The position numbers were made by a program. This document shows, in pieces, positions 56,501 to 59,500 of a DNA stretch of 64,000 nucleotides (the first letter of the stretch is position 1; each line of letters begins with the position of its first letter). This DNA is from a virus. Its lineage: Duplodnaviria > Heunggongvirae > Uroviricota > Caudoviricetes. The DNA is taken from IMG/VR virus record IMGVR_UViG_2537562172_000006. One strand, written 5' to 3'.

Positions 56501-59500
56501 CTCGGCATCCTTGGATCGGTGAACTTATACACGCCTCTACCCAGTCTTTTTATTGTCGCTCCAAAATCCTTTTTAATTAAGCGTCCTGTATAGTTACTCA
56601 TACTTTGGTTGTTATATCTCTCTCCAGTATCTTGATATATCTGGTTTATCCATTCTTTAACGCCAAACTCCTCATTTTTAAACTTTGACGCTGAATATAG
56701 AATTTTTTTGTACACATCTGTTTTAGATGAACGAACAGCATCCTCATACTCTCTTCTTAGCCTACCTTCAGCATTCTCAACTGATTTTTCAATTGATTTA
56801 TGGAAGATTTCAGAATTAATAACTTTGCTAGAATCAACAATGGCAGCCTCAGCAGCCTCCTTGCAAAGGAGGTGAGTAAAATATGGAAAGCCATTGCTTA
56901 TATCAACTATTTGATTTTTAATTTCATCGTCAAACCTTAGTCCTAATCCTTTTTCTCCCAGACTGATTATTTCTAACAGATGCTTTTCATCAACCCCTCC
57001 CAGACAAACCTCATGCAGGCATCTGTTAACAGATTCATGCCCTGCCGTAAGGCTTTTACCATCCTTAGAAATTCCCACAAGCAATACTTTCAATTTCGAA
57101 TTAAAATCGCTCAACTGCTTTATAAACTCTGCAACAGCTTTCTTTATATCGTCTTCTAATACATCAAACTCATCTATAACGAGAACCCCCTGAATTATTC
57201 CAATAGTCGCTGCTGCCTTTCGAGGAGTTATTTCATCTCGTTCTATAGTTATTTTTTCTTCATAACCCACGTTACCAGTAAAGAAACTAAAAAACTTTGC
57301 AGATAAGCCTGCCTTTATTACTTTCTCTTCCTTATACTTTTCCGGGTTTTGTGAGATAAATATTGCACATTCAGAGACGATATCTTTAAATTTAGTGTTA
57401 GTATCACACTTCACATTAAAATACTCACCTAAAAGTACGTTGTATTGCCTGCCACCAATAACTGTAGCATTAGCTAATGAGCTCTTTCCGATTCCTCTAT
57501 CACCATATATCATACAATGCCTACCAGGAACCGTTAAATTATCTAAAATACTTCTCACCTCAGTATCTCTCCCCTTTAAATACTCAGGATTAGATATAGG
57601 AGTTGAAGGAGTATAATATTTATTCACATCATCTTTTTTTGCAAATTCTTGTGCATACTCTGCAAAAATATTCACATACACCTCCTTTTCATTAAAAATG
57701 ATTAACCTGCCACTTTCTGTTTTGCAACCGTTACAAACTTCTTACGAGACTAAATATTTACGCATATCAAAGGAATGTTACGCGCGCTCATATCCATCCC
57801 ACGCTATCCCATTTTACATGAACATAGGTAAAAACCCGCAACATCAGCATCAACAAAAAGCCTTACCCGTAGGCTTAATGTTTGGCTTGGCTGTAGCCTT
57901 ACCGAACGCGCCGCTCACCGTCGTGGCCTGTCCGGTTTCTTCCACTGATACGGCCTCACATCATCATGCTGGTGGCGTTCCTGTTGCAGAACAACGGAAA
58001 CAGGCGCTGAACACCTGTTAATTTTGCCTGCTGGTGGTCTGATTCCGGCAATGCTGCGGATCATCTCCAGCATATCGGCTTCGGTGATGGTCATGATTTA
58101 CACCTTAGGAAATCTTAGGGGGCTGGTTGACACTTTCCGGCTTAAGACCTTAATAAATCTTAATATCGCGGGTTGACACACTTGACACTTTTCGGGAAAA
58201 ACCTTAACAAAACTTAACCTCCCCTGGCATTTCTAAGCATGGCAACTTGACACTTTTCGCGATTTTTTCGGCTTTTTGACGTGGTAAATCTGGCGCAAAG
58301 CCAGTAACGGCGGGGTTTACAGCGAGGTTGACACTTTTTCGCGTTCAGAGTGTAAAGTGTCAACCCGGCAGACGGCCTGACTTGACACTTTTCGCGAATT
58401 TTACGGTCATTAATGGGATGATTTTTCCCACTCAGCCAGGGCGTTTAGTCCGGCTTCACTCCAGTTATCCAGCTCATCGGGACAATCACCTGCAACATAG
58501 CAGAGCTCACAACGCAGCATACGAATTGCCAGCCTGGCATTTTCCCGAAAATCATACTGCTCAAAGTAATATTGCCCAGCATAATCCTCAAGGCAGATAG
58601 CACCATCATCAAGAAATTGCACTTCACAGCATAATTCCCCGGCTGCATCCTGCACACGCTGCTGTATGTCATCGTCCGTTACTGGTGCAGGGATTTTACC
58701 GTCTCTGGCCTTAACTGCTTTCCAGAACTCGCCCCACGTCATTTCCAGCGTTCTTTCTGGCCACATTTCAGAAACGGTGTCTTTCCCCTGTGCTGGTGGG
58801 CTGTTCCGCTGCTCTGTCGCCTCCACATCAATTTTTTTGCCAGACATGATCACTTCGCCTTTCTCGATCCAGTCGTAAACTGTCTGGCGGCTTACGCCTT
58901 TGTGTTTAGCATATTCTGCTTTACTCATTAGCATATTGCCCTCTCATGAAATAACGTTGTGTGCTGTCTGCCCCTGTGACTTCAGCTTGTTTTCAGCATA
59001 TGCCTCGAACACCGTCACCCACGCATCACCATCGGCAGTAAGATACGCTCCGATGTGGCGAACGGACTTAACCAGAAATTTTCCGGTGAACGTGGTCGAG
59101 TTTTTGGAGATAACACTGGGCGCTGTAGTATTAGTCATGAGGATCGACGATGCTCCTGAAAACATTCCCTGAGGCAGTTCGATCACATCACTACACCGTA
59201 TATCTCCCCGCAACGGGCATTTAAAACTGACGGTAAAAGGCTTTATCCATGTTGGTTGGCCTATTAATTCATAAGGTTCAATTTTCTTTATTTTCCCCAG
59301 TTCCAGTGATGAATTATCATAAAGACGAATGCGATCTGGTAACATAATAATGCCTACCCCGCTATATCCTTTCTGACGAATAATCGCTTTCGATAAACTT
59401 CGCACAGCCATAGCCAGCGAACCTATATCAAGGTAAACCAGTGGAATATCTTCAGGTAAAACCAGGTTATCACTGACCGAGGATTCAATAATTTTATCTG

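Follow-up and report, generated by a model that had tools for sequence, protein, structure and literature searches.

A probable composite pac region built from satellite boxes and helper terS-like sites beside a winged-helix gene of a PICI-type phage satellite

Introduction

Several phage satellites mimic the packaging signals of their helpers, among them P4 and SaPIbov5 (both cos), EfCIV583, and the phage-inducible chromosomal island-like element (PLE), in which mimicry of pac goes together with the proteins GpsA and GpsB (Boyd and Seed 2024, PMC11417361). In the Escherichia coli phage-inducible chromosomal island (PICI) EcCICFT073, the protein Rpp re-aims the small terminase subunit, TerS, of the helper (cosB; Fillol-Salom 2019, PMC6739421; Murialdo and Feiss 2022, PMC9026076). 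This published E. coli mechanism concerns lambda-type cos helpers, and the packaging of Gram-negative PICIs by headful (pac) helpers is largely undescribed. Here, we analyze a 64-kb stretch of Caudoviricetes DNA (IMG/VR record IMGVR_UViG_2537562172_000006; hereafter the window) that contains a PICI-type satellite, and we suggest that positions 58100-58400, next to the gene for a 174-aa winged helix-turn-helix (HTH) protein, are probably a composite pac (packaging-initiation) region. In this region, copies of a satellite-specific box containing TTGACAC, the A-box, are interleaved with duplicated dimer boxes that resemble a site within the terS gene of the likely helper.

The element would work most like a pac-phage counterpart of Rpp, combined with PLE-like mimicry. 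Similarly to Rpp, the HTH protein has an N-terminal winged HTH that resembles the DNA-binding domain of lambda TerS; the two proteins differ in that they have no sequence homology and in that the C-terminal domain is alpha/beta in the HTH protein, whereas Rpp has a helical dimerisation region. The helpers differ as well, the likely one here being taken as headful, with a Terminase_2 TerS and no cosN, and that of Rpp being of the lambda cos type. The sites differ too: for Rpp, one R3-like element has been proposed, compared to a 300-bp array with seven boxes and mimics of the helper site here. With PLE the element has in common short mimics of helper signals and satellite-encoded packaging specifier proteins. 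It differs from P4, SaPIbov5, EfCIV583 and PLE in that four boxes match four helper terS alleles, in that the mimics are phased with satellite-specific boxes, and in that the mimicked sequence lies in the coding region of helper terS.

Staphylococcus aureus pathogenicity islands (SaPIs) carry their own TerS with its own pac site; SaPI TerS is a Terminase_2 homologue and replaces the helper TerS. In the window, too, a satellite protein with an N-terminal HTH DNA-binding domain is encoded beside a packaging site, here a predicted one, but the 174-aa protein is no TerS homologue beyond a generic winged HTH, and the presence of mimics of the helper TerS site in the satellite suggests that helper TerS is still used. 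In the open-access literature that we searched, neither the HTH family nor the TTGACAC array nor the multi-allelic dimers are described. The element would be a new variation on known satellite packaging piracy.

Results

Seven A-boxes adjoin the winged-HTH gene

The first-pass annotation of this DNA described six direct copies and one inverted copy of a motif directly 3' of a 174-aa HTH gene, and both parts of this description are borne out. The A-box is a 10-mer, TTGACACTTT, that is often extended to a 15-mer, TTGACACTTTTCGCG. Six copies of the 10-mer are present in the window, at 58127, 58182, 58247, 58328 and 58382 on the plus strand and at 58354-58363 on the minus strand, compared to 0.19 copies expected from shuffled sequences, and six copies were reached in 0 of 100 shuffles. 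Together with a degenerate copy, TTGACACACT, at 58173, this makes six direct A-boxes and one inverted A-box that span 58127-58396 with irregular spacings of 46, 9, 65, 81, 26 and 28 bp. The 15-mer is exact at 58247 and 58382 only, the other copies differing in their 3' part. The nearest A-box ends at 58396, 13 nt from the stop codon of the HTH gene. Gene and boxes are arranged as follows, in the order in which they are met from the gene:

58410-58934, minus strand: winged-HTH gene, 174 aa, the last gene of the satellite late module, encoding the proposed A-box binder and packaging specifier
58382-58396, plus strand: A-box 7, TTGACACTTTTCGCG, the first box after the HTH stop codon and a member of the triad, with a conservation of 1.0 in 24 arrays
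58354-58363, minus strand: A-box 6, inverted, the middle member of the conserved triad
58328-58343, plus strand: A-box 5, TTGACACTTTTTCGCG, the third member of the triad
58247-58261, plus strand: A-box 4, TTGACACTTTTCGCG, which on the minus strand lies 8 nt upstream of the GC-type dimer box
58173-58191, plus strand: A-boxes 2 and 3, overlapping, TTGACACAC TTGACACTTT, 8 nt upstream of the AT-type dimer box
58127-58141, plus strand: A-box 1, TTGACACTTTCCGGC, 6 nt upstream of the CC-type dimer box

The motif is restricted to this site. All seven copies of the 7-mer TTGACAC/GTGTCAA in the 64 kb lie in the array, no A-box is found elsewhere in the island, and the motif is absent from the Rac-SA53-like prophage of the window and from phage Rac-SA53 itself. 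The concern that the motif might be a common genomic repeat is answered by this search of the window, which found it confined to the array. We also agree that the array is not a CRISPR array: spacing ranges from 9 to 81 bp, one copy is inverted, and Tandem Repeats Finder detected neither an array of TTGACAC boxes nor a CRISPR-like array, its only row being a 20-nt two-copy repeat at 58199-58218, inside the GT-type dimer box described below. Rfam gave no match in the array, and the GC content of the array, 42-50%, is ordinary.

The HTH gene and the TTGACAC array are kept together in 72 non-redundant loci at protein identities of 39-99%. In most of these loci, AAAGTGT[C/A]AA ranks first or among the leading repeated 7-mers immediately downstream of the HTH gene, with the clearest signal in the E. 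coli group and in the groups of 39-41% identity. By the stop codon lies a conserved triad of direct, inverted and direct boxes about 27 bp apart, and further direct copies follow beyond it. Across 24 E. coli-group arrays, column conservation is best in the A-boxes (0.96), intermediate in the spacers (0.83) and lowest in the dimer boxes (0.76), which are the most variable part. The N-terminus of the HTH protein and the A-box are both nearly invariant.

Between the A-box triad and the first composite unit of A-box and dimer, at 58300-58330 in the window and at the same position in four relatives (L003, L005, L040 and L042), we observed a conserved CCGCC(A/G)TTACTGG and a degenerate box, GGTTTACAGCG. 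Both are candidates for a cleavage site or a host-factor site.

Dimer boxes are interleaved with the A-boxes

The array contains a second motif, which the first-pass annotation had missed, in the form of four internally duplicated dimer boxes on the minus strand among the A-boxes. Their pattern is NNTAAG-N4-NNTAAGG, i.e. two TAAG-type half-sites one helical turn apart; in the window array, NN is the same in both half-sites of a box and different from box to box. The four boxes are:

58222-58240, minus strand: GC type, ATGCTTAGAAATGCCAGGG, an exact 19-nt copy of the commonest terS allele (M-L-R-N-A-R)
58202-58218, minus strand: GT type, GTTAAGTTTTGTTAAGG, both half-sites of which match the terS allele of the window prophage (L-L-R-N-V-K)
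58148-58164, minus strand: AT type, ATTAAGATTTATTAAGG, which resembles terS allele L-L-R-N-T-K and has the 9-mer AAGATTTAT in common with P22 pac
58103-58119, minus strand: CC type, CCTAAGATTTCCTAAGG, which matches terS allele L-L-R-N-P-K and shares bases with the ribosome-binding region of the following open reading frame (ORF)

The strict form of the pattern has four matches in the window against 0.055 expected, three in the array and one in the prophage terS gene. Identical NN in both halves was found in 18 of 26 distinct dimers of satellite arrays, where the chance of identity is 1 in 16. The dimers are also phased with the A-boxes, three of the four window boxes lying 6-8 nt downstream of a TTGACAC box; in the set of 72 non-redundant relatives, A-box and dimer are separated by 5-8 nt in 29 cases and by 17 nt in 17 cases. 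The phasing of 6-8 nt hints at a heterocomplex between the HTH protein and helper TerS.

We considered whether the window dimers are remnants of a captured terS gene and rejected this idea, as homology ends at each 17-19-nt box edge. One box in the Serratia relative L008 extends to approximately 30 nt of terS-like sequence, and capture from terS is therefore the likely origin of the dimer boxes.

The dimer recurs inside terS of the likely helper

The likely helper of the satellite is a Rac-SA53-like prophage located about 30 kb from it in the same window. This prophage covers at least 8000-30700 and occupies much of the window; it shares about 95% identity with Escherichia phage Rac-SA53, along about 20 kb, and also with a phage named 'Actinobacillus phage vB_Apl-pPE4'. 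Its genes include:

26464-27555, minus strand: terS, 363 aa, for which membership in the Terminase_2 family was shown with the Rac-SA53 orthologue
25146-26474, minus strand: terL, for the large terminase subunit
23690-25126, minus strand: portal gene

Rac-SA53 TerS belongs to Terminase_2 (29.8 bits, cutoff 26.1) and its TerL to Terminase_6N, and we take these two families to indicate headful packaging by the helper. The link between satellite and helper has support that is independent of the array because four satellite late proteins, encoded within 58944-61653, are 54-74% identical to products of prophage genes. Two of them, of 345 aa and 111 aa, share 72-74% identity with genes at 11105-12453 in the baseplate region. 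The other two, of 223 aa and 197 aa, share 54-59% identity with a single gene at 21663-22925, of which they together make up a split copy; the 223-aa half alone was shown to match DUF2213 and a head-maturation-protease PHROG. This split copy may remodel capsid assembly.

Inside the window terS gene, at 27108-27124, lies a GT-type dimer, GTTAAGAAATGTTAAGG, in the codons for L-L-R-N-V-K-V. We surveyed this position in approximately 100 related loci from IMG/VR, in which it holds the codons for A-S-x-[LM]-[LI]-R-N-x-[KR]-V. Many Terminase_2 terS genes (IMG/VR loci L093-L189 and L191-L252) have a direct-repeat dimer of the form NNTAAG-AAAT-NNTAAGG in the codons for x-[LIV]-R-N-x-K-V. The alleles are, by codons, residues and NN type:

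CTC CTA AGA AAT CCT AAG, LLRNPK, type CC
CTG ATA AGA AAT GAT AAG, LIRNDK, type GA
CTG TTA AGA AAT GTT AAG, LLRNVK, type GT
ATG CTA AGA AAT GCT AAG, MLRNAK, type GC
CTA TTA AGA AAT ACT AAG, LLRNTK, type AT/AC
ATG CTT AGA AAT GCC AGG, MLRNAR, type GC, the commonest allele

In the first half-site, NN straddles a codon boundary (third base of one codon, first base of the following one); in the second half-site, it is formed by positions 1 and 2 of the variable residue's codon. Across the alleles, NN covaries between the two half-sites (CC, GA, GT, GC and AT/AC), including at synonymous third positions. The Arg codon of the site is always the rare AGA, which makes up 2 of the 24 Arg codons in the window terS gene, and the codons flanking this invariant AGA vary synonymously among the loci surveyed. 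At the level of sequence, this pattern suggests that the terS-internal site behaves as a DNA element and not as codons alone. From what is known of Terminase_2, the A-S-x-L-L-R-N-x-K-V motif would be the recognition (second) helix of the HTH of TerS. The four boxes of the window array correspond to four of the terS allele types, one each, and the match between satellite box and helper terS site, itself a predicted pac, reaches 19 nt without a mismatch. Among five pairs of satellite and helper in the same genome in IMG/VR, the satellite has a box of the helper's type in three, with exact half-sites in two and a near-match in one.

Serratia-type satellites (L008 and L056) have AG and GG dimers in non-coding DNA. 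If dimers are copies of terS sites, some terS alleles should have Ser (AGT) or Gly (GGT) as the variable residue, together with the matching preceding base. This prediction was passed: a scan of IMG/VR for RGTAAGAAATRGTAAGG gave 33 terS-like ORFs that read IVRNSKV (ATA GTA AGA AAT AGT AAG) or MVRNGKV (ATG GTA AGA AAT GGT AAG). In these ORFs, Leu TTA is paired with Ser AGT and Leu CTG or TTG with Gly GGT, and none of them has a mixed GG/AG dimer. The four AG/GG matches of the scan are in ORFs of 234-1894 aa, which are long and unlike terS.

The terS-internal dimer is probably the pac site of the helper itself, as judged by its DNA-level covariation, by the general location of pac in terS and by analogy to P22. 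The pac site of P22 has been defined experimentally (Casjens 1987; Wu 2002) and is annotated in NC_002371 at 4-25. Similarly to what is predicted for the dimer, it is a headful site inside terS (gene 3), GAAGATTTATCTGAAGTCGTTA, with two xAAG direct half-sites in the layout GAAGATTTATCTGAAG, and the 9-mer AAGATTTAT occurs both in it and in the AT-type box of the window; its half-sites are 12 bp apart, whereas they are 10 bp apart here, and the resemblance could be due to chance. P22 gp3 presumably belongs to a different TerS family.

The flanks of the boxes show a regularity of their own. The 3' flank of a dimer, GGTTTTTCGCG, and the 5' flank of the next A-box, CGCGAAAA, make up a palindrome, TTTT(T)CGCGAAAA(A), at 58189-58200 in the window and at about +190 to +200 after the HTH stop codon in the relative L037. 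Because the flanks of dimer and A-box form this palindrome, the 'TTTTCGCG' tail of the motif in the first-pass annotation is read as the inverted flank of the helper site. The GGTTTTTCGCG flank is present in helper terS as well, as codons for K-V-F-R.

The HTH protein resembles small terminases in its N-terminal domain only

We detected 106 members of the HTH protein family, all of them in Enterobacterales. Nearly all lack a name; a few are annotated as 'HTH' or DNA-binding proteins, and two Pantoea homologues are named 'Repressor' in UniRef. Residues 1-42 are nearly invariant, including S-R-Q-T-V-Y-x-W, while the rest diverges to 34% identity. These ~42 residues form a winged HTH of the Xis/TerS/Rpp type, like that of the DNA-binding domain of lambda TerS, and their fold matches include a TerS DNA-binding domain (6.4), BldC (6.2), lambda TerS (6.1), P2 Cox (6.0) and RppC (5.7). 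The members of this fold class (Xis, lambda TerS, RppC, Cox and BldC) bind arrays of repeats. The C-terminal domain, residues 56-174, has an alpha/beta fold, without a TerS-like oligomerisation core and without a match to TerS over the whole protein, and no full-length analogue was found in PDB or BFVD. A phmmer search and a 34-sequence profile gave no match among all PDB chains, including RppC (6HN7), and neither the protein nor the array had a tblastn or blastn match among 50,697 phage records.

The island contains no terL, and the proposal that the HTH gene encodes a conventional small terminase is not upheld: the likeness to TerS ends after the first ~42 residues, which are also Xis-like and Rpp-like, and there is no terL next to the gene. 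The HTH protein is instead the most economical candidate for the A-box binder because a constant protein adjoins a constant box and the two are found only together. An impression from four loci that two variants of the recognition helix (DWIEKG and DWVAKG) are linked to the box variants TTGACAC and TTTACAC failed in a larger set of loci, e.g. in L042/L043.

The array lies at the downstream end of a PICI-type late zone

The satellite has the features of a PICI-type element, namely an int gene, an AlpA-like gene, a primase gene with an adjacent origin, a short late zone, no full set of virion genes and a size of ~10-20 kb. Its int end lies beyond the window, and the full layout was read from the related island L001 (NZ_CP013662; E. 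coli 08-00022), which is ~13.7 kb long and is 97% identical to the window in the array and HTH region. Encoded on one strand of L001 are, in this order, integrase, a small AlpA-like HTH protein, AntA/B, an Icd-like protein, DUF4222, primase, ProQ/FinO and PerC, followed by five unnamed late genes, the array, a small ORF and cargo; the Pfam and PHROG results for the window copies agree with this layout. According to the available text of Tommasini, Mageeney and Williams 2023 (PMC10111431), Gram-negative PICIs follow a four-zone plan with packaging (cos) sites at the downstream end of the late zone, and this is the position of the array here. Its helper-embedded or fis-type PICIs have the same four zones (integration, Bro, replication and late) and captured helper late genes; cos packaging is presumed for the model element, and that text mentions neither this HTH family nor the TTGACAC array nor the terS mimics. 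Two further features of the window flank this part of the satellite:

62886-63250, strand not assigned: replication origin, ~10 copies of the 11-bp iteron GGTAGACAGTT around a stretch of 26% GC
57915-58094, minus strand: 59-aa ORF directly after the array, with a C-terminus, ERH..Y.WxKPxxRR, that is kept in the Serratia relative L008

The origin lies directly downstream of the primase gene and has its iterons in tandem pairs in both orientations. That the array is the replication origin is ruled out by this canonical origin, the iteron of which is unrelated; no TTGACAC motif is present at 62886-63250. The small ORF has 59-62 aa across the E. coli and Serratia relatives (11021-11209 in L008) and is missing in some, such as L037.

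Discussion

A model of the composite pac region

Altogether, we consider it probable that 58100-58400 is a composite pac region of the satellite. Behind this reading stand the presence of both motifs, their phasing, conservation and confinement to this site, the match with alleles of helper terS, and the N-terminal fold of the HTH protein; from these we infer that the proteins bind the sites and contact each other, that the DNA is cleaved and that the terS-internal site is pac. During late helper growth, the winged-HTH protein of the satellite would load onto the A-boxes, and helper TerS would bind the adjacent dimer box that is cognate to its own allele, at a fixed offset of 6-8 bp. The complex of HTH protein and TerS would then recruit helper TerL, which would cut nearby and thereby start headful packaging of satellite concatemers. 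With several types of dimer, one satellite could use helpers that differ in pac specificity, and the constant pair of A-box and protein would give the satellite an advantage over the single site of the helper. In the best reading, the site is pac and not cos, and the HTH protein is adaptor-like and not a terminase. Of the packaging options raised in the first-pass annotation, the evidence favors pac, and the cos variant falls away with no lambda-type cosN in the window: scanning for cosN (GGGCGGCGACCT) with at most 2 mismatches allowed yielded 4 two-mismatch matches, compared to 3.9 by chance, none of them in the satellite.

More tentatively, and with more doubt than belief on our part, the helper site and the array might be understood jointly: a large class of Terminase_2 terS genes may have a 17-bp direct-repeat pac dimer in the codons for the recognition helix (x-[LIV]-R-N-x-K-V), and the satellite would exploit it with a cassette of several allele types. 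Positions 1 and 2 of the variable codon (P, D, V, A, T, S or G) may then be the specificity bases of both half-sites, so that one terS locus would encode a protein variant and its matching DNA site, which would change together. In the satellite, each dimer variant, one per helper allele, would stand at a fixed distance from the box of the adaptor.

Several observations speak against a composite pac region. The label pac for the dimer, a predicted site in Rac-SA53-like phages, draws on analogy and DNA-level covariation. The spacer is ATTT or TTTT in the satellite dimers and AAAT in terS, and some family members, namely L005 (partly), L040, L042 and the L062 group, lack strict TAAG dimers, having looser two-part repeats after the A-boxes. 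Single-sequence and profile searches found no sequence similarity of the HTH protein to Rpp or gpNu1; its C-terminal domain has no known analogue, and the contact of this domain with TerS is a guess. There is no clean covariation between helix and box, and it is adjacency and co-conservation that point to their pairing. Finally, the array also lies upstream of the small ORF and the cargo genes, where it may have a regulatory role.

Other explanations of the array

The last point leads to an operator or promoter-control region, in which an HTH regulator on the A-boxes would control the 59-aa ORF and the cargo (defence) genes and a second regulator would bind the dimers. The array indeed fills the intergenic region upstream of the 59-aa ORF, with the last dimer overlapping the ribosome-binding region, the N-terminal fold is common to the regulators Cox, BldC and AlpA, and the name 'Repressor' of the two Pantoea homologues in UniRef would fit. 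However, a sigma-70 promoter scan of the array found none, although every box contains TTGACA, and the boxes are at no other promoter of the island. What follows the array differs between relatives (SieB or a STAND NTPase) or is missing (no small ORF in L037), yet the array itself is conserved, and the copying of helper terS alleles with covarying half-sites is left unexplained. The operator option of the first-pass annotation survives as a minor rival that we regard as unlikely: the boxes are downstream, not upstream, of the HTH gene and nowhere else in the island. Hard to separate from a pac region, as a TerS-binding site would also recruit TerL, is a terminase decoy, in which the dimers and the HTH protein would trap helper TerS and block helper packaging without forming a productive pac. 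It can appeal to the same evidence of TerS-site mimicry, and known satellites join interference and packaging in one protein, as in Rpp (PMC6739421) and PLE Gpi (PMC11417361). The satellite needs a packaging signal, however, and our searches of the island for cosN and for further terS-like sites gave no other candidate; we regard a pure decoy as quite improbable.

The array could also be a second replication element, made up of iterons or of a crr-like region as in phage P4 and bound by the primase-helicase. P4 uses two separated iteron clusters, ori and crr, and the island encodes a P4-alpha-like primase. Yet the canonical origin at 62886-63250 has GGTAGACAGTT and no TTGACAC, the GC content of the array is 42-50%, and the A-box is constant among relatives whose primases vary in type (590, 780 and 881 aa, with different domains), all of which makes a replication role very improbable. 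To the idea that these are arm sites for an excisionase (recombination directionality factor), or a partition centromere, we give the least credence of all. Cargo genes of at least ~0.8-1.7 kb lie between the array and the end of the island, a separate small AlpA-like HTH gene adjoins int, and the HTH protein has two domains and 174 aa, unlike excisionases of 50-80 aa. A centromere, which had been suggested in the first-pass annotation, finds no conserved partition NTPase in an element that is integrative; the NTPase next to the array is variable cargo, with SieB in its place in L001.

Implications

If the array is a composite pac region, the HTH proteins are a new and widespread family of packaging specifiers in E. 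coli, Klebsiella, Serratia, Pantoea, Enterobacter and Yersinia, most of which are annotated as hypothetical. The dimer would likewise provide a sequence rule for the pac sites of many Terminase_2 phages, from which the starts of generalised and lateral transduction could be predicted, and the array would be a case of one satellite hedging across helpers with different packaging specificities. Because these satellites carry defence cargo (a STAND NTPase here and SieB in a relative), their route of transfer bears on the spread of immunity genes. The composite site could also serve to build transducible plasmids for defined helper phages.

Neighboring genes

A gene for a 401-aa STAND/AAA NTPase (Pfam nSTAND1; 56476-57681, minus strand; low GC, ~35%) sits in the cargo slot that separates the array from the end of the island and is a candidate for anti-phage defence; in L001, the slot holds SieB instead. 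On the other side, at 62059-62885 on the minus strand between the origin and the late genes, are encoded a PerC-family activator (95 aa) and a ProQ/FinO-domain protein (180 aa), which are possible regulators of host or helper genes. In relatives from Klebsiella (L006 and L007) and Serratia (L008), a long block of myovirus tail genes follows the HTH gene and array, and then comes a fragment of a major-capsid gene in L007 and a DUF5681 gene in L006. These three relatives seem to be embedded in prophage late regions, with baseplate or tail-fibre genes of their own.

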